Positions 2,203-30,817 of a stretch of DNA of 32,000 bases are shown here, one piece after another; position 1 is the stretch's first letter, and each line of letters opens with the position of its first letter. The stretch is taken from NCBI GenBank assembly GCA_016700135.1, contig CP065004.1, forward strand, positions 990,001 through 1,022,000, in the 5' to 3' direction. A program made the translations under genes and the position numbers. The notes beneath the pieces were generated by a model that ran no database searches, had not been told where the DNA came from, and worked only from the letters and a program-made list of their open reading frames with translations. This stretch comes from Candidatus Saccharimonadota bacterium. GTDB taxonomy: Bacteria > Patescibacteriota > Microgenomatia > UBA1406 > GWC2-37-13.

Positions 2203-2235
2203 GATCATGTATGAGTTCCATACATATGGCACTCT

Positions 2236-2730
2236 TTAGGTAAAATAGATAATAGGTAATCCATAGGTGAAATATTGTTCAGGCTTTTTGTGAACTCGCT
2301 TTGTATTGTACCAGACGAGGTATTCAATAAGGTGACGATTGAATGATCCGATACCGGTCCACTTGGTATAGATGTAGGGGTTCATAAATTCTTCCTGGAG
2401 TGTTCTGTTTGCTCGCTCAATAAAGGCATTGATCTTGGGACATCTGGGGTAGATAAAGAGGTGTGGGATATTGTTTTCTTCCAGATAGTCATGGAAGTTT
2501 CCCAGATACTCGAGGCCGTTATCTGTTTGTATGGTTTTTATACCATCTTGTATTGGGTATACTAGTTCCAGTCTTCTCATAAAATCAGCACCGTTTCGGC
2601 TGTTGAGTTTTGAGTATCCGTAGGAGAACTGGAATTTGAGTTTGATGTCCACTGCATTGAAGACATACAGCTTGATTCCGTGTACAAACTTCGTGATGGT
2701 ATCAATCTCAATGTATCCGGTATCTTCCAC
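2236..2730 (-). CDS. IS transposase, integrase-core (DDE, rve) fragment; likely pseudogenised by a 1-nt frame change
   Basis: The DDE triad context is present: YIEIDT, QTDNGLEY and PKINAFIERANRTLQEEF, followed by WYNTKRVH as in IS481-type transposases. The frame is +1 relative to the upstream fragment, and no slippery heptamer is present at the junction. Confidence 0.7.
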   Translation of the reverse strand: MEDTGYIEIDTITKFVHGIKLYVFNAVDIKLKFQFSYGYSKLNSRNGADFMRRLELVYPIQDGIKTIQTDNGLEYLGNFHDYLEENNIPHLFIYPRCPKINAFIERANRTLQEEFMNPYIYTKWTGIGSFNRHLIEYLVWYNTKRVHKKPEQYFTYGLPIIYFT

Positions 2731-3310
2731 CTTGGGGAGACCGCTTGACCTTCTGTCGGTACTTTACTTTCCGTTTTGCAAAGCCACTTGCTGGATTGTG
2801 ATAGATCCGGTAGGTCTTGCGCTGCAGGTTGTGTCTTTTGATCACTTTTCCAATGGTTGACTCAGATATAGTTGAAATTCCTTCCTGTAGGCAATACTCA
2901 TCAAGTAAGGGCTTGATCTTCTCCTTTCCCAAACAAAAGTATTGTTCTCGAATCTCTTTGATAAAGGATATGACCTTCGGGTGAGTCTCCATACGTCGGG
3001 GTGTCTTTGGCTTGGTTGTCTCTGGTATCAGGCTATCCAACTGCCCTTCTGAATCTCGCCGTCTCTTCCTCCATCGAAACAATGTCCTTCGTGATATCCC
3101 ATATGCATCAACTGCAGCTTGTATCCCGTACTTCTCTGCAAATGTCAGAACATCGTTTCTGATTTGTGCTACATCTGACTGATTGTAGTCTGATAGAGAT
3201 CGTATCTTTTTCATAAGATCTCTATTGTACTGCCAGTCATAACTCCTAATTACTCGAAGCTGATCTCCTCCCCATTTACTCATAGATGTTAGTTCCCCTA
3301 TGAGTGCCAT
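2708..3310 (-). CDS. IS transposase, N-terminal HTH/DNA-binding fragment
   Basis: 200 aa with an HTH-like segment (GISRRTLFRWRKRRRDSEG). It stops 23 nt after the start of the overlapping DDE frame. Confidence 0.7.
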   Translation of the reverse strand: MALIGELTSMSKWGGDQLRVIRSYDWQYNRDLMKKIRSLSDYNQSDVAQIRNDVLTFAEKYGIQAAVDAYGISRRTLFRWRKRRRDSEGQLDSLIPETTKPKTPRRMETHPKVISFIKEIREQYFCLGKEKIKPLLDEYCLQEGISTISESTIGKVIKRHNLQRKTYRIYHNPASGFAKRKVKYRQKVKRSPQGGRYRIH

Positions 3311-3331
3311 ATCTTTCGTAACTTATTCAGA

Positions 3332-4171: not shown

Positions 4172-4867
4172 CTAGTTGAAAGCTGCAAAAACCTTTTCCC
4201 ACTTTCCCTGATCGATGATATCTTCAAGGTTGTGAAAGCTCTTGTTGATTCGGTGATCAGTGAGACGGCTTTGAGGAAAATTGTAGGTACGGATTTTTTC
4301 TGCTCGTTCTCCGTTTCCGATATCTTTAACGTATGAAAACATCATTCCTTTTTTCTTTTCCTCTTCTAGCTGATAGAGTTTACCTGCAAGCAACTCGAGA
4401 GCAATCTGCCTGTTTGCCTGCTGTGTCCGTTCCTGACTTGAGGTGACGACCACACCGGTCGGCTTATGTGTCAGTCTCACGGCCGATGCAACTTTATTGA
4501 CGTTCTGGCCTCCGTGACCTCCCGCACGGTAAAACTGCCAATCCAGATCTCCCTGGTTGATCTGTACCTCATTTTGCGAAATTTGCGGCGTGACAATGAT
4601 AACGGCTGTTGAAGTATGGATACGGCCGCGCTTTTCCGTTGTCGGAATACGCTGTACTCTATGAACTCCCGTTTCATTCTTAAAATTGTTAAATGCATTC
4701 GGTCCCTTGATCCGGATAATATTTTCTTCGATAAACTGGGATTTCATGCCGTGTTTTTCGGCAAATTTCATATAGGAGACCAGAAGTTCCCGACCCCATA
4801 TTTTTGATTCATCTCCTCCAGCGCCCTGTGCGGCTTCAATAATGACAATGTTTGAGTTGATGTTCAT
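4172..4867 (-). CDS. prfA: Class I peptide chain release factor, RF1-like, lacking the N-terminal domain 1
   Basis: 231 aa with the GGQ motif (RAGGHGGQNVNK), the RF1-like recognition context HRVQRIPTTEKRGRIHTS and the C-terminal RTYNFPQSRLTDHRI. The start codon lies 3 nt after the hisS stop, leaving no room for the usual ~100-aa domain 1. Confidence 0.8.
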   Translation of the reverse strand: MNINSNIVIIEAAQGAGGDESKIWGRELLVSYMKFAEKHGMKSQFIEENIIRIKGPNAFNNFKNETGVHRVQRIPTTEKRGRIHTSTAVIIVTPQISQNEVQINQGDLDWQFYRAGGHGGQNVNKVASAVRLTHKPTGVVVTSSQERTQQANRQIALELLAGKLYQLEEEKKKGMMFSYVKDIGNGERAEKIRTYNFPQSRLTDHRINKSFHNLEDIIDQGKWEKVFAAFN

Positions 4868-26344: not shown

Positions 26345-27730
26345 ATGTCAGAACATTCGAAACAATATTCAACAATTGACATGATCGACTTTAACAAAGT
26401 CGAATTGTCCCAAGAACTTTTGGGAAGCTATTCTCCTTTAGCTTTACGCGTTTATGAACGCGGAAGAAGGGGTCATCAACGATTGCATAATCCGACACAT
26501 GCACCTTTTGATGAAATGTCTGTTCAAATTCCTGCTCATAAGTATATCGAGAGAATGAATCGTGAAATGTTTGAATACATTTGTGATGTATACGATGTTA
26601 CGCCGGATCGTGCTGAAGATATCCTCTTTAATGCATTCAGCGATGCAAACCGTTTAGTCACGAGTACTCTTGCACATGCTTTACCTGAGGAGCATGCAAC
26701 ATCATTCGGATTACGGAATGAGGTTTTATCATTCGTGGCGGATGAACCCGGTGACCGTATCTGGCAGATGGCGCATCAGGCACGTGATGATCGGGAAGAA
26801 TTTCAGTTATTCCAGCAACTGCAGTTGGCTCATCCTTTGATAGATCTCCATGCAAGCTATCCGCAGAGACGCGTGAAGGGTCTGCTCTATCGCATGCAGG
26901 GACTTCTGAATGAAGATTTGTACAACGGAGAAAGTCATAAAGGTAATGATGATCTGCATTTTGCGACATGGCACAATCCTGAGGATAATGCGTTTTTAGG
27001 ATATGATCCTGTTATCGGCGGAGTACCGCTTTTTCACAACGTATCTGCAAGAAGGCTAAAAGACGGCAATAACAGTATTCATATTATGACTAATTTCCGT
27101 GAAAAGGATCCGCATACTGCAATGGGTAAGTTGTTAGCCAAAACACTAATGAACGGTGATCCGGTCCTTGATATGCACCGTCATGTACAGGATCTGGCAG
27201 GATTGAGATTGACTGTTCTCGGCGGGACCAGGGAGCGGGACATGGTCTATCAGAGAGTCCTGGATGTGTTGAATGAACGAATGATCAAGCAGGCCAGAGA
27301 GCCGTTATCTTCCTCGAAGCTGCATATTGCTGACATTGAAGATGATTGCCACATTGACGGCCGCTCGAAAAACGGACATATTGACTGGAGACGCAGCAAA
27401 GTATGGCTCATAGATCCTTCAAAAGGGACAATAATGAGACAGCCCATTGAGCTGGTTGTTGATGATTACGGGCTGCTCATGAACGGAAGCTACTATATCG
27501 GAGATAAAAATGATCCGAGACTTCCTGAAGCTCATCTTGAGTTTGAAAGAAAACGTGCGCAGAATCCTTTATTCGGGTTTCTCTTTCCCACTGATGTATA
27601 CAGATCTGCTTATGAATCTATCGACATTGAAGGGGAAATGGCAAAGAAACGCGATGAAAACCGACGCGCATTGAGAATACATCCTGAGGCTCCTCAGGAA
27701 TTAGTTCTGGGAGACGGTATTGTTTGGTAA
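26345..27730 (+). CDS. Divergent RelA/SpoT synthetase-fold (nucleotidyltransferase) protein with a ~240-aa unknown N-terminal region
   Basis: FREKDPHTAMGKLLAK matches GRVKxxxSxxxKxxRK. VQDLAGLRLTV matches xQDIAGLRIxx. NGHIDW matches xGYRSxH. PIELVVDD occupies the position of EIQIRT, with the Glu kept and the Gln and Arg replaced. Confidence 0.55.
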   Translation: MSEHSKQYSTIDMIDFNKVELSQELLGSYSPLALRVYERGRRGHQRLHNPTHAPFDEMSVQIPAHKYIERMNREMFEYICDVYDVTPDRAEDILFNAFSDANRLVTSTLAHALPEEHATSFGLRNEVLSFVADEPGDRIWQMAHQARDDREEFQLFQQLQLAHPLIDLHASYPQRRVKGLLYRMQGLLNEDLYNGESHKGNDDLHFATWHNPEDNAFLGYDPVIGGVPLFHNVSARRLKDGNNSIHIMTNFREKDPHTAMGKLLAKTLMNGDPVLDMHRHVQDLAGLRLTVLGGTRERDMVYQRVLDVLNERMIKQAREPLSSSKLHIADIEDDCHIDGRSKNGHIDWRRSKVWLIDPSKGTIMRQPIELVVDDYGLLMNGSYYIGDKNDPRLPEAHLEFERKRAQNPLFGFLFPTDVYRSAYESIDIEGEMAKKRDENRRALRIHPEAPQELVLGDGIVW

Positions 27731-28663
27731 GGACTTTAATTCGTCGGCGATTGCTTTACTGATACTGACTTCCTGCATTTTTTCAAAACGATATTCTTCT
27801 TTGAGAGCGATCGTATCTGTCGTAAAGAATGCCTGAAGCGGTGAGTTTTGCAGTTTTTCCGCTGTTCCTTCTGCAAAATCCCGATGGACAATTGCGGCAA
27901 TGACGCTGGTGGCTCCCTGTTCCAGGGCAAATTCTGCGGCGTGGATGAGAGTACGTCCCGATGTTGCGACGTCGTCAACGATAATCGCAGTCTTGTCTTT
28001 TACGTCTCCGTAGAGATTCAGCGCTTTACTTTCATGCATATGCTGAAGATCACGTTTCTTTTCCGTGACGGCAAGATTGAAATCAGAATGTCCGAACAAC
28101 ACTTCCCCGAATTTTCGTGCCCGTTCGATTCCCCCCTGATCCGGAGAGATGACGGCTACGTGCTCGGGATCTGCCTGGATGTTGTTTACCTGAAGGTATT
28201 TATGAATTTCTTCGGCAAGTACGGGAAATGCGGAAATATTTTTAAACGGAATATCAAATACTCCTTCAGTTGCCTCATCATGCAGATTGACAGTGTAGAC
28301 TTTGTGGATCCCGATAGATTCAAGGAACCGGATAATAACATTTGCCGAAACACATTCTCCGGGACGATGCTGGATATCCTGTCTGGCATACCCGAAATAT
28401 GGGATCATTGCAATAACACGTCTTGCCTCTTCCCGTCTCAGAGCATCAGCCATAAGAAATAGTTCCATGAGATTTGAATTGGTGGGGTTCGATGTCGACT
28501 GGATAATAACACAGGTATCATTTTTGACGTCTTCTTCCACGCGTACCCGCACCTCTGAATTCTCAAACTGTACAACTTCAACTTTTGCTAGCGATTGGTT
28601 GAGCCCATTTGCAACTTGTTCTGATAAGGGTTGATTTGATGTACCGGAAAAGAGTTTGAGCAT
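27701..28663 (-). CDS. prs: Ribose-phosphate pyrophosphokinase (PRPP synthetase)
   Basis: Carries MLKLFSGTSNQPL, MIPYFGYARQD and the PRPP-binding loop AIIVDDVATSGRTL. Start set at MLKLF, because the longer track ORF translates an intergenic repeat. Confidence 0.93.
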   Translation of the reverse strand: MLKLFSGTSNQPLSEQVANGLNQSLAKVEVVQFENSEVRVRVEEDVKNDTCVIIQSTSNPTNSNLMELFLMADALRREEARRVIAMIPYFGYARQDIQHRPGECVSANVIIRFLESIGIHKVYTVNLHDEATEGVFDIPFKNISAFPVLAEEIHKYLQVNNIQADPEHVAVISPDQGGIERARKFGEVLFGHSDFNLAVTEKKRDLQHMHESKALNLYGDVKDKTAIIVDDVATSGRTLIHAAEFALEQGATSVIAAIVHRDFAEGTAEKLQNSPLQAFFTTDTIALKEEYRFEKMQEVSISKAIADELKSLPNNTVSQN

Positions 28664-28670
28664 GGTCGTT

Positions 28671-28770
28671 AGGTTGTAGCTGGTAGGCCCGCCGTTTGGC
28701 GGAGTTGGCTGTAGGTTATTGGTAATTCCAGTAATCATTCATACCGGCTACCAGCTACCACCTACGCCTT
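28671..28770. repeat. Intergenic hairpin repeat, copy A (MITE/REP-like)
   Basis: About 100 nt. The terminal arms AGGTTGTAGCTGGTAGGC and GCCGGCTACCAGCTACCACCT pair in 16 of 18 positions. By hand alignment it is about 85 percent identical to copy B. Confidence 0.8.
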
Positions 28771-28776
28771 GAGATC

Positions 28777-29031
28777 TTACTGATTCATTTCCATGAGCTT
28801 GCGTGCTGCAAGTTCCTGTGTTTTTTTGACGGCATCATTGATTGCTTCGGCAACACGGTTTTCCATAACGCCGTCTATTTCGACATTAAGAATTTTCTGG
28901 TCTCCCCGCATTGTAATGGTGACACCGTTTTTTTCGACCGTTACTTCTTCTTTCTGAAGGGCTTCCTGCATTTTCTTGGCCTGTTGTTGTAATTGCTGCA
29001 GATTTCCGAGTCCTTTAAGTGGGTTAAACAT
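28777..29031 (-). CDS. ybaB: YbaB/EbfC-family nucleoid-associated protein
   Basis: 84 aa with N-terminal GNLQQLQQQAKKMQEALQK and a core V..NGVTITMRGDQKILNVEID, typical of the family. It sits next to dnaX, as in many bacteria. Confidence 0.88.
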   Translation of the reverse strand: MFNPLKGLGNLQQLQQQAKKMQEALQKEEVTVEKNGVTITMRGDQKILNVEIDGVMENRVAEAINDAVKKTQELAARKLMEMNQ

Positions 29032-29040
29032 AGTAAATTT

Positions 29041-29140
29041 ACGTGTAGCTGGTAGATCCGCCGACGGGCGAAGTAGGCTGTAGGTTAATGATAATTCCAG
29101 TAATGATGATTACCGGCTACCAGCTACCACCTACCGCCTT
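29041..29140. repeat. Intergenic hairpin repeat, copy B
   Basis: Same architecture as copy A: GTAGCTGGTAG ... CTACCAGCTAC arms, an internal small GC hairpin and a shared TAATTCCAGTAAT core. Its right end abuts the dnaX stop codon. Confidence 0.8.
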
Positions 29141-30183
29141 TATGATTTATTTCGACTATTATAAAATTCTACCACAACGAGTTCAAGGGGGAGAGCTTCG
29201 ATCGGAGATATTCTGATTCCGTTATATGCCTCGTGCAGCAGTTTGATAAGCATCGAAATTTCCCTCATGGTATAGATGAGTTCCGTCTCGGTTGATTTCC
29301 CGGTGCTTTTTGCAAGAAGTAGGATATGCAGGACGCTAAGCATATCTTCAATTGCACGTTTGACATTTCCGCCTGACTGGATAAAATCGTCAACCCACTG
29401 CATACTTTCGGCAAGTGTCCCCTTTTGCATAATTTCCAGAAGTGTTCCTTTTGCCCGGACGCCAAGATATTCCTGTGCAGCCTCAAGAGTCAAAGTATCC
29501 TGCATCACAAGCTCTTCAAACATTTTTGCGGCATCTCTGAAGGAGTTTTCGCTATATGTAGCAATAAGATTTTTCAGTTCTGCGGGAATTGTAACGGTTT
29601 CCTTTTCTGCAATCCGATCAAGCATGTGAATAATGTCCTTTTTATGTGCCCGACCGAAAGGAATTCGTACACACCGTGAGATGATCGTATTCGGAAGCTT
29701 TTCTTCATTTGTTGTGGCCAGTATAAAGATAACAGTTTCAGGAGGTTCTTCCAGGGTTTTTAGGAGTGCATTGAAAGCGTCGGGAGTGATCATGTGGGCT
29801 TCATCGATGATATAGACACGGTATCTTCCGGTCATCGGAGCATAAGATGATTCCCGAATGAGCTTTCTGACTTCTTCAATACCTCGGTTTGATGCCGCGT
29901 CCTGTTCGACCACATCAGGTGAGCTTCCGTTTTCAATCGTAGTACAGTTGTTGCAGCTGTTGCAGGGTTCATACGATGTTCCTTTTCCCGCAAACTTGTT
30001 CTCCAAACAGTTGACTGCTTTTGCAACGATGCGGGCAGTTGAGGTTTTGCCCATTCCTTTCGGACCGATAAATAGCAGGGCATGAGGTAAATCTTTTGCG
30101 GATAGAAGATTTGTTATTTTCGGTCGTACCTGTGAGTTGTCGAGTTCTGTGATAGTTCGCGGTCGGTATTTGAGATAAAACAT
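29140..30183 (-). CDS. dnaX: DNA polymerase III subunit gamma/tau (short, gamma-like form)
   Basis: Carries YRPRTITELD, the Walker A GPKGMGKTSTAR, a Zn module CNSCNNC, DEAHM and the sensor SRC. At 347 aa it lacks tau-specific C-terminal domains. Confidence 0.93.
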   Translation of the reverse strand: MFYLKYRPRTITELDNSQVRPKITNLLSAKDLPHALLFIGPKGMGKTSTARIVAKAVNCLENKFAGKGTSYEPCNSCNNCTTIENGSSPDVVEQDAASNRGIEEVRKLIRESSYAPMTGRYRVYIIDEAHMITPDAFNALLKTLEEPPETVIFILATTNEEKLPNTIISRCVRIPFGRAHKKDIIHMLDRIAEKETVTIPAELKNLIATYSENSFRDAAKMFEELVMQDTLTLEAAQEYLGVRAKGTLLEIMQKGTLAESMQWVDDFIQSGGNVKRAIEDMLSVLHILLLAKSTGKSTETELIYTMREISMLIKLLHEAYNGIRISPIEALPLELVVVEFYNSRNKS

Positions 30184-30191
30184 GACAAATT

Positions 30192-30268
30192 GGGTTGTAG
30201 GTAGTAGATTGTAGCTTGTAGTAACTGTCAGAATTGTAGTTTTGACTACATCCTACCACCTACGAACC
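30192..30268. repeat. Intergenic hairpin repeat, copy C (shorter, degenerate family member)
   Basis: Shares the termini GGTTGTAGGTAGTAG and CTACATCCTACCACCTACGAACC, which are complementary to each other. The right terminus CTACCACCTACG is shared with copies A and B. Confidence 0.6.
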
Positions 30269-30274
30269 ACAAGC

Positions 30275-30631
30275 CTATTTACTGAAAATATTCTGTATTC
30301 CGTGTTCGATAAGCTGATGCATCATTGCCTCAACCTTCTTTTCACGTTCTGCCGCAAGAAGAATCGCCTGCGGATAACATATCACCACTTCTCCGATTAT
30401 ATTCTCCGTCGTATTTTCGGGATCGTTGATGTAGGCAAACGAAAGGACCGGCAATGCCACATCCTCGTTTTTATACGTGAGTGCGACCTGCTTCATTTTT
30501 CTTTTTCCGACAAAAGCAACATTCAGTACGGATGCTGAGTCCACATGATATCTGTCCAGTACTTGCTGGGCAAATGTTTCAATGTTGTTTTTGTTGATTT
30601 TGTATCGGGAAGAACTATAAATATTGATCAT
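30275..30631 (-). CDS. ybeY: YbeY-like (UPF0054) protein, C-terminally short and lacking most of the H3xH5xH metal site
   Basis: Carries LTYKNEDVALPVLSFAY and IGEVVICYPQA, and ends LIEHGIQNIFSK. This aligns with YbeY up to the first His of HGxLHLxGYDH, then the frame stops. Confidence 0.65.
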   Translation of the reverse strand: MINIYSSSRYKINKNNIETFAQQVLDRYHVDSASVLNVAFVGKRKMKQVALTYKNEDVALPVLSFAYINDPENTTENIIGEVVICYPQAILLAAEREKKVEAMMHQLIEHGIQNIFSK

Positions 30632-30634
30632 ATC

Positions 30635-30817
30635 TTAACTCTTTCGATGTCTTTTTTTTGACCGTTCTTTTTCCTGTTCTTTACGTTCCTGAGAAGGTCT
30701 CTTATAGTACATTCGTGAGCGCACTTCATCGACGATATCTTCTTGGATAAACATACGGGTGAATTTGCGGAACATACTGTCTTTTGATTCGCCTTTCTTT
30801 TTCTTAACTACAACCAT
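30635..30817 (-). CDS. rpsU: 30S ribosomal protein S21
   Basis: A 60-aa basic protein with FRKFTRMFIQEDIVDEVRSRMYYKRPSQERK, matching the S21 pattern. Confidence 0.85.
   Translation of the reverse strand: MVVVKKKKGESKDSMFRKFTRMFIQEDIVDEVRSRMYYKRPSQERKEQEKERSKKRHRKS

Follow-up and report, generated by a model that had tools for sequence, protein, structure and literature searches.

Opposed TAG-heptad arrays form hairpins in the intercistronic spacers of a ybeY-dnaX-ybaB-prs cluster in the candidate phyla radiation

Results

We analysed a 32,000-nucleotide (nt) stretch of a Candidatus Saccharimonadota bacterium genome (contig CP065004.1, positions 990,001 to 1,022,000; hereafter the window) with regard to the repeats that separate the genes of its ybeY-dnaX-ybaB-prs cluster. 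Homologues of dnaX place the host within the candidate phyla radiation (CPR)/Patescibacteria, near Roizmanbacteria-type genomes. The cluster lies on the reverse strand (Table 1), and its spacers of 113 nt (ybaB-prs), 108 nt (dnaX-ybaB) and 91 nt (ybeY-dnaX) are each occupied by one hairpin-forming element, which we call A, B and C, respectively. A preliminary description, made from the letters of this DNA, had placed related elements at these three positions and proposed that they fill every spacer of the cluster; their presence and places were confirmed, and the filling of every spacer holds within this cluster but not elsewhere in the window. The elements begin 0-6 nt past the upstream stop codon and end 7-9 nt before the next start codon, close to the spacing given before. 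As had also been noticed, a longer open reading frame (ORF) for prs translates part of the repeat: this 345-aa frame, reaching position 28738, opens at an ATG within element A, upstream of the true start (Table 1).

A and B are 86% identical (78/91 ungapped nt; about 81 of 95 positions had been counted by hand), and the 19-nt terminus CTACCAGCTACCACCTAC(G) is found in all three elements at 100, 95 and 84%. A terminal 18-mer searched with up to 3 mismatches matched the window 8 times, always inside A, B or C, and 0 matches were expected from shuffled sequences. The core GGCTGTAGGTTAnTGrTAATTCCAGTAAT and the small GC hairpin that had been ascribed to A and B are present in both, and element C has its entire internal layout in common with A and B, beyond the termini. 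Read 5' to 3', the family layout opens with four RTAG heptads and a small inner hairpin, passes through an AT-rich linker and one additional CTAyAAGC to either a short linker or a GC mini hairpin, and closes with two to three CTAy heptads.

The GTAG-rich termini reported before in all three elements are part of period-7 tandem arrays (Tandem Repeats Finder, period 7 at 28742-28765, 29111-29135 and 30195-30221), a heptad and stop-codon build that the preliminary description had missed, as it had the wider taxonomic spread of such elements. The 5' arm follows the formula (R-TAG-NNN)n and the 3' arm (NNN-CTA-Y)n, with RTAG recurring 3-4 times per arm at period 7 and base-paired. Three consecutive heptads therefore place UAG in all three reading frames, and the opposed array does likewise on the other strand. 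In this host TAG works as a stop: it is the codon that closes ybeY, and the window encodes an RF1-like protein (4172-4867). This RF1-like release factor, encoded on the reverse strand 3 nt downstream of hisS, has only 231 aa and matches prfA models from about position 104 on, without the N-terminal domain. Among all gene starts of the window, very few have a Shine-Dalgarno-like sequence within 20 nt, and the host appears to start translation mostly without one. Since most genes lack it, the A/U-rich tail of 7-16 nt that follows the stem represents a normal initiation context here.

In mRNA sense, all three elements fold as hairpins (A, -43.3 kcal/mol, z -5.1; B, -35.3, z -2.8; C, -30.0, z -4.4), and the antisense strands of the three spacers fold about as strongly. 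An alignment of 11 copies revealed the invariant blocks TAGG-T..TAGCTGrTAG, CTAyArG and CTAyCAGCTA, with heptad number varying between copies in 7-nt steps. The consensus fold retains an 11-bp core stem whose two R:Y pairs alternate between G-C and A-U, and the purine before TAG covaries with its pairing partner in the opposite arm. Redundancy of the heptads allows individual folds to adopt several registers. An exact palindrome was rejected, since fixed-register complementarity of the arms barely exceeded that of shuffled partners beyond the anchors, save at the R of RTAG; the arms are opposed arrays of one heptad type rather than strict inverted copies.

Table 1. Genes of the cluster and parts of the three spacer elements (window coordinates)
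Feature	Position	Strand	Basis or detail
prs (ribose-phosphate pyrophosphokinase)	27701-28663	-	Pfam; true start 28663, agreeing with orthologues
Element A (whole ybaB-prs spacer)	28664-28776	-	hairpin ~28667-28768
A, 3' arm	28669-28687	-	CCTACCAG CTACAAC CTAA (mRNA sense); sequence and folding
A, small GC hairpin just inside the 3' arm	28689-28702	-	CCGCC-GTTT-GGCGG (+ strand letters)
A, interior	28707-28747	-	extra heptad CCTACAGCC 28707-28715; AT-rich linker; inner hairpin CCGGUAUGAAUGAUUACUGG 28728-28747
A, 5' arm	28745-28766	-	GTAGGTG GTAGCTG GTAGCCG (mRNA sense); UAG in all 3 frames
ybaB/ebfC	28777-29031	-	Pfam
Element B (whole dnaX-ybaB spacer)	29032-29139	-
B, 3' arm	29043-29055	-
B, GC mini hairpin	29058-29070	-
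B, inner hairpin	29097-29116	-
B, 5' arm	29117-29138	-	mRNA sense
dnaX (short gamma/tau, 347 aa)	29140-30183	-	Pfam and dnaX homologues
Element C (whole ybeY-dnaX spacer)	30184-30274	-	divergent member, layout as in A and B
C, 3' arm	30191-30220	-
C, 5' arm	30245-30273	-	GCTTGTGG TTCGTAG GTGGTAG GATGTAG (mRNA sense)
ybeY	30275-30631	-	Pfam; stop codon TAG
rpsU, 3 nt upstream of ybeY	30635-30817	-	Pfam

We compared the syntenic region junction by junction in six relatives (L002-L004 and L006-L008). All three spacers were filled in L002, L003 and L004, whose dnaX genes are 95, 89 and 82% identical to that of the window (spacers of 90-115 nt in L002). L006 (77%) was filled at site B only, its ybeY and dnaX overlapping at TAATG and its ybaB and prs being joined by TAA-T-ATG; L007 (70%) had no element and its genes abut, and L008 (87%) had spacers of 53-68 nt without heptad arrays. 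Since the genes abut in some relatives, the inserts sit precisely between the stop and start codons of otherwise touching genes. In L002, L003 and L004 the dnaX frame enters element B and terminates at its first TAG (gcttaTAG); element B supplies the dnaX stop codon in the three genomes. Occupancy also varied among contigs whose YbaB is 100% identical to that of the window: L243 has a heptad element at neither A nor B, L241 has B alone, and L240 has B together with another A variant and no C. The L240 and L241 contigs stop 58-73 nt beyond ybaB, at the site-A spacer, as would fit an assembly break at a repeat.

A second subtype, frequent in the relatives, has every GTAG replaced by ATAG and every CTAC by CTAT (ATAGCTGATAG ... 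CTATCAGCTAT), and the 11-copy alignment showed the two subtypes to be homologous end to end. Heptad-free ybaB-prs junctions (L008:11360-11427; L243:452-511; L241:1387-1444) hold a different spacer of ~60 nt with a small hairpin (TCCGGATCAATTCCGGA / CCGGATTAGTTCCGG), which may be another spacer element or a remnant. The ybeY-dnaX spacer of L008 contains TAGCTTCATA...GAGCTGATATAC, which resembles a decayed ATAG-type 5' arm. Two of the assemblies, GCA_964504235.1 (CAZDDM01, with loci L002, L091 and L115) and CAZMJG01 (L120), are titled 'uncultured Gammaproteobacteria bacterium'; for CAZDDM01 this label looks wrong, because the assembly has a CPR-type cluster with dnaX 95% identical to that of the window, and for CAZMJG01 the sole evidence on the label is a GTAG-type element like the CPR copies.

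Divergence of the elements does not follow that of the genes around them. Window B is 93% identical to the site-A copy of L003, window C is 94% identical to L003 C, L002 B and L003 B are 93% identical, and the A and B copies within L004 are 92% identical, whereas window and L002 copies share only 64-69% identity at each of the three sites. The genes of the window and L003 are 78-85% identical at the nucleotide level and 51-62% at third positions (synonymous ~55%); those of the window and L002 are 88-97% and 72-91% identical, respectively. The closest genome pair, the window and L002, has different subtypes at all three sites, and the site-B copy of the window has its nearest copy at a site A (L003). 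Since the elements beat silent sites in distant genomes yet are wholly swapped in the closest, their history is not one of vertical neutral descent. The comparison indicates copy-to-copy replacement, through ectopic conversion or re-insertion, combined with horizontal spread or strong constraint.

Copies also occur at unrelated loci of CPR-type genomes. Scanning GTDB species genomes with the palindromic pattern TAGCTGRTAG-N40-70-CTAYCAGCTA, we found a further copy in the L002 assembly (L091), between pgk and glpX, and one between recG and nusB in another CPR-like assembly. A family-specific pattern applied to metagenome contigs showed the pgk-glpX junction to be filled in two further contigs, along with several other CPR-like sites. 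We counted 3 copies in the 32 kb of the window and no fewer than 4 in the assembly of L002. Together with the filled spacers of the relatives and their polymorphic occupancy, these loci bear out the earlier suggestion of a dispersed family rather than a local duplication. The asymmetric interior was in sense orientation to long flanking ORFs in all CPR-type copies (at least nine sites), and the distance from CTAYCAGCTA to the start codon was 12-16 nt in 16/16 copies counted, from at least nine independent sites.

Hairpins of the same build were found well outside the CPR. At least 120 loci matched in the GTDB scan, against ~70 chance sites estimated for the whole collection under equal base frequencies, and the metagenome scan yielded 105 more, with a GC content of 0.29-0.71. 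Only 13/229 loci, pooled from the genome, metagenome and viral scans, lacked extra in-phase heptads beyond the pattern. The GTDB matches listed include Vicinamibacterales and other Acidobacteriota, Aminicenantes, Hymenobacter isolates and other Bacteroidota, and many Patescibacteria, as well as Nitrosomonadales/Gallionellaceae, Desulfobacterota, Nitrospiraceae, Chloroflexota, Gemmatimonadaceae, Planctomycetota, Verrucomicrobiota and others; in all, the collection scans place TAGCTGR-heptad hairpins in at least a dozen phyla. Hymenobacter lapidiphilus and H. psychrophilus are cultivable bacteria with hairpins of this kind. The consensus of 1738 heptad units reads T-A-G-C(82%)-T(72%)-G/T-G/A. 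As the scan patterns demanded TAGCTGRTAG and CTAYCAGCTA, the universality of the exact unit is partly selection bias and other lineages may use other heptads; likewise, the likeness across phyla is one of shared build, and the scans do not imply homology between phyla.

In these other phyla most of the hairpins lie between genes in a tight fit, often with 0-20 nt to the neighbour on either side, and flanking ORFs frequently terminate at the element's own TAG. We additionally counted polarity in ~1.49 Mb of sequence (L009-L237) with the pattern-selected elements masked, requiring at least three TAG at period 7 followed within 100 nt by at least three CTA: a TAG array preceded a CTA array 23 times and the reverse order occurred 0 times. 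Genes bracketed by two hairpins are ordinary members of operons, among them rplF, ATP synthase beta, nuoK, pyruvate kinase and leuA. A REPtron-like arrangement was rejected, as a Pfam search of ten ORFs, each flanked by two hairpins separated by a few hundred nt to ~2 kb, revealed no transposase; nine belong to ordinary families (eight housekeeping or metabolic, one a 23S rRNA intervening-sequence protein) and one had no Pfam match. A phage vector was likewise rejected, the viral collection giving only 4 matches, of which 3 were genuine. These three, on the IMG/VR viral or proviral contigs L129, L130 and L131, are TCATAGC-type heptad hairpins, so that the class is rare in viral contigs and not absent from them.

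A metagenome-assembled genome of Aminicenantes (WVZO01) carries the hairpin TAGCTCA TAGCTCA TGGCTCA TAGCTGA TAGG ... CTATCAGCTA inside giant non-ribosomal peptide synthetase (NRPS) ORFs of 1892 and 2369 aa (L028:1162-1230 and 4453-4521; L014:1915-1983). Because one heptad has TGG rather than TAG, one frame stays open, and these intragenic copies are in frame. The two copies of L028 each lie just upstream of the AMP-binding_C region of an NRPS module. Nine further loci of the same assembly carry the hairpin (L027, L039, L042, L057, L072, L092, L095, L107 and L109).

Several known signals were considered for the window elements. At its gathering threshold, Rfam passed only a tRNA elsewhere in the window, and a known RNA family was rejected on a search at E up to 10, in which the best local match was a let-7 precursor with 19 bits against a threshold of 53.5 (E = 1.3). 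A terminator and promoter scan of the elements gave no convincing signal, the sole call being a weak inner stem in B. We dropped the idea of a split ribosome-binding site, in which a conserved AAGGCrG 5' of the hairpin is brought beside the start codon, because most window genes lack any Shine-Dalgarno sequence. In integrons, attC core sites R''/R' (RYYYAAC ... GTTRRRY) bracket an imperfect palindrome after each cassette ORF. An attC array was rejected here, since inspection by eye revealed no core sites at the element ends and the flanking genes are syntenic core genes that are also present without elements.

The window contains one insertion sequence (IS) of the IS481 family (2224-3312, reverse strand), whose transposase is split into two overlapping ORFs, 2708-3310 (helix-turn-helix part) and 2236-2730 (rve integrase core). 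Its 20-nt imperfect terminal inverted repeats (ATATGGCACTC...) are unlike the heptads, and we rejected derivation of the elements from this IS as its MITE (miniature inverted-repeat transposable element), since the ends are unrelated. Beside the cluster, prs and a convergent 461-aa ORF (26345-27730, forward strand) overlap by 30 nt at their 3' ends (27701-27730). This ORF and its 430-aa neighbour are conserved beside the cluster in the six relatives and matched no Pfam or NCBIfam family.

Discussion

On balance, the three hairpins are probably copies of a non-autonomous palindromic repeat family, similar to repetitive extragenic palindromic (REP) sequences or MITEs, that consists of opposed TAG-heptad arrays (consensus TAGCTGR) and is tolerated in operons. 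With stops in every frame at the entry side of either strand, a stem complete in itself and a brief open leader, the element would do almost no harm when inserted between cistrons of a compact genome, which would explain why copies persist in essential operons. New copies may arise via hairpin- or single-strand-dependent transposition, of the kind known from IS200 and the REP-associated tyrosine transposases (RAYTs), or via ectopic gene conversion. The element would be co-transcribed, and its proposed role on the mRNA is that of a 'stop, hairpin, restart' cassette. At its entry side, UAG in every frame would halt any translation before the stem; the stable stem would not unfold, and it might impede 3' exonucleases or serve as a substrate of a double-strand RNase; and the A/U-rich tail would keep the next start codon accessible in a genome that rarely uses Shine-Dalgarno sequences. 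Roles as stabiliser, processing site or attenuator, suggested previously, are plausible candidates.

Several observations weigh against this reading. We found no target-site duplication on comparing filled with empty junctions, no terminal inverted repeats of IS type at the elements, and no transposase family, RAYT/Y1 included, in the Pfam results for the long ORFs of the window or the Pfam gene tables of seven fetched loci; mobility is therefore inferred from distribution only. Of the likeness to REP, MITE and Correia elements proposed earlier, the GTAG motifs, the long hairpin and the TAG donated to the upstream ORF stood, while a REP unit, IS-type terminal inverted repeats, a target duplication and a Correia-type structure were not found. 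Copy number in the lineage looks low, as the remaining 30 kb of the window contain no further copy and ~55 kb of the relatives' flanks hold one degenerate remnant. The site-A flanks just outside the hairpin are common to both subtypes, so that interior replacement at an old insertion fits better than independent insertions. Finally, selection for RNA function would explain the 93-94% conservation and the strict sense orientation just as well.

That last point leads to a possible, if somewhat unlikely, alternative, in which selection primarily maintains the elements as cis-acting intercistronic RNA modules. They would act in processing or stability, as a target of a double-strand RNase or as a 3' exonuclease barrier for the upstream cistron, or else as a translation insulator and restart platform. 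Such modules would set the relative expression of ybeY, dnaX, ybaB and prs, and their spread to other junctions would be co-option rather than selfish transposition. The strict sense orientation at no fewer than nine CPR-type sites with a fixed 12-16 nt to the start codon, the 93-94% identity across genomes whose synonymous sites are ~55% identical, the compensatory G-C/A-U changes in the core stem, the strong folding z-scores and the position within conserved, highly expressed operons of several phyla would all be accounted for. Yet the elements are dispensable: spacers in L008 and L243 are shorter and unrelated, and in L006 and L007 the genes abut in an unchanged order. Even the closest genome pair differs in subtype at all three sites. 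Nor does the structure single out the mRNA: the antisense strand folds equally strongly, no Rfam family matches, and the arm registers are degenerate, with no single structure conserved past the 11-bp core. A repeat family tolerated in operons and an RNA role are not mutually exclusive.

It seems unlikely that the heptad arrays are primarily DNA, with the hairpin secondary, serving either as iteron-like binding sites for an oligomeric protein or as RTAG tags for a RAYT-like transposase. The unit does occur at fixed spacing with an invariant TAG(C) core, its choice of G or A before TAG is coherent within an element (62% vs 42% and 58% vs 36% for shuffled partners), and the fixed polarity of 23:0 is as in head-to-head GTAG REP dimers; but a 7-bp period does not hold sites on one helix face, GTAG is not universal, with ATAG and TTAG units common, no candidate protein was identified, and the sequences examined (the window and the relatives' loci) contain no RAYT/Y1 gene. 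We regard it as very unlikely that the elements act between the genes as intrinsic, perhaps bidirectional, terminators or attenuators of transcription. Stable stems directly after stop codons, a short T run after some B copies (e.g. AATTTTTTACT in L002) and at least 18 matches between convergent genes in other phyla would suit them, whereas none of the main stems was called by the terminator scan, a T tract is missing from A and C, 25-30 bp stems interrupted by internal loops would be unusual for terminators, and the elements lie upstream of the essential genes dnaX and prs, for which no own promoter was detected. It is hardly credible that a local tandem duplication or a low-complexity chance pattern, rather than a repeat family, explains the hairpins: the three window copies are adjacent, within 1.7 kb, but zero chance matches are expected in the window, and copies at unrelated loci in many genomes already refute it.

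Tentatively, and with a real chance of being right, the window copies could represent, within the CPR, a cross-phylum class of intercistronic palindromes made of stop-codon heptads that has so far gone undescribed. These would be portable cassettes of invariant polarity at housekeeping stop/start junctions, lacking the hallmarks of both REP/RAYT systems and transposons with terminal inverted repeats. Such elements could donate stop codons and, with one frame open, live in frame inside NRPS genes. That the pattern recurs in Acidobacteriota, Bacteroidota, Patescibacteria, Nitrospirota, Chloroflexota and Proteobacteria, among others, points to intergenic elements of a general class. CPR genomes are ~1 Mb in size, tightly packed and poor in mobile DNA. 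A repeat that sits between essential cistrons which would normally overlap, and whose exchange outpaces synonymous divergence, bears on how compact genomes tolerate selfish or semi-domesticated DNA. It also affects annotation, through a false N-terminal extension (prs here), altered C-termini (dnaX in relatives) and two short contigs that end at the site-A spacer.

Comparison with known systems

In the literature searched by sequence strings and keywords, a limited library, we found no published description of opposed TAG-heptad arrays. MITEs that insert into operons and are co-transcribed include Correia/NEMIS, ERIC, RUP and BOX. Like these, the elements described here are ~100 bp long, non-coding, hairpin-forming, located between co-transcribed genes and polymorphic in presence or absence at orthologous sites; unlike them, they have no IS-related terminal inverted repeat, no TA or other target duplication and no integration host factor site architecture, and their arms are tandem heptads. 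The cyanobacterial STRR heptanucleotide repeats (CCCCAGT and others), reportedly described by Mazel et al. in 1990 as tandem and intergenic in particular lineages, resemble the arms as tandem heptamers in the intergenic DNA of particular lineages, with different units; to our knowledge, stop-codon units arranged as opposed arrays between cistrons are not known among them. Rickettsia palindromic elements are palindromic repeats able to sit in frame inside genes, and intragenic REPs also exist (Di Nocera 2013, PMC3733652). The Aminicenantes copies in frame in NRPS modules are alike in this respect, although the sequences are unrelated and the window copies are all intergenic.

For GTAG REPs and REPINs we used Nunvar 2010 (PMC2817692), Bertels & Rainey 2011 (PMC3116915) and Di Nocera 2013 as references. 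A REP unit is a short (20-40 nt) imperfect palindrome with a stem of 5-13 bp and a loop of 2-20 nt (PMC3733652, Table 1), and carries a single GTAG (GTRG) tag at one end, outside the pairing; REP systems have a cognate RAYT (Y1 transposase) gene flanked by repeats, and tens to thousands of copies per genome. Our elements share with REPs and REPINs their intergenic and palindromic nature, the GTAG motifs and a location mostly downstream of ORFs. As in head-to-head REPIN dimers, the GTAG ends of one long hairpin point outward, and the TAG arrays occupy the 5' arm whichever strand is read (23:0); as in GTAG REPs, the terminal TAG is often the stop codon of the flanking ORF, and occupancy is strain-variable with occasional copies inside genes. 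Unlike the REP unit, each arm here is a non-palindromic heptad array that pairs solely with the other arm, and the short GC-rich stem-loop bearing a lone unpaired GTAG is missing, RTAG lying within the stem at 7-nt intervals. Furthermore, an ATAG subtype (TTAG in Bacteroidota) occurs in place of GTAG, copy number appears low, no RAYT was found in the loci examined, and the hosts (CPR, Acidobacteriota, Bacteroidota) lie outside the phyla listed for GTAG REPs.

The other close parallel is with TAACTGA heptamer direct repeats, reported from Beggiatoaceae, Cyanobacteria and Bacteroidetes (MacGregor 2015, PMC4679880). Those arrays are in direct orientation, with one inverted case in 170, and TAGCTGA is listed as not occurring as a direct repeat in the genome of that study (PMC4679880). 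The present elements differ in their unit, TAGCTGR/GTAGNNN, and in having a pair of opposed arrays that fold together into a hairpin whose interior is structured. In both cases, however, a 7-nt stop-codon unit closes all three frames, indels come in 7-nt steps, spread across phyla is patchy, and the arrays are intergenic, ending a few nt before start codons that mostly lack a Shine-Dalgarno sequence; the ATAG-type unit TAGCTGA is a single base away from TAACTGA. A class of this kind could link REP biology with the unexplained arrays of stop-codon heptamers.

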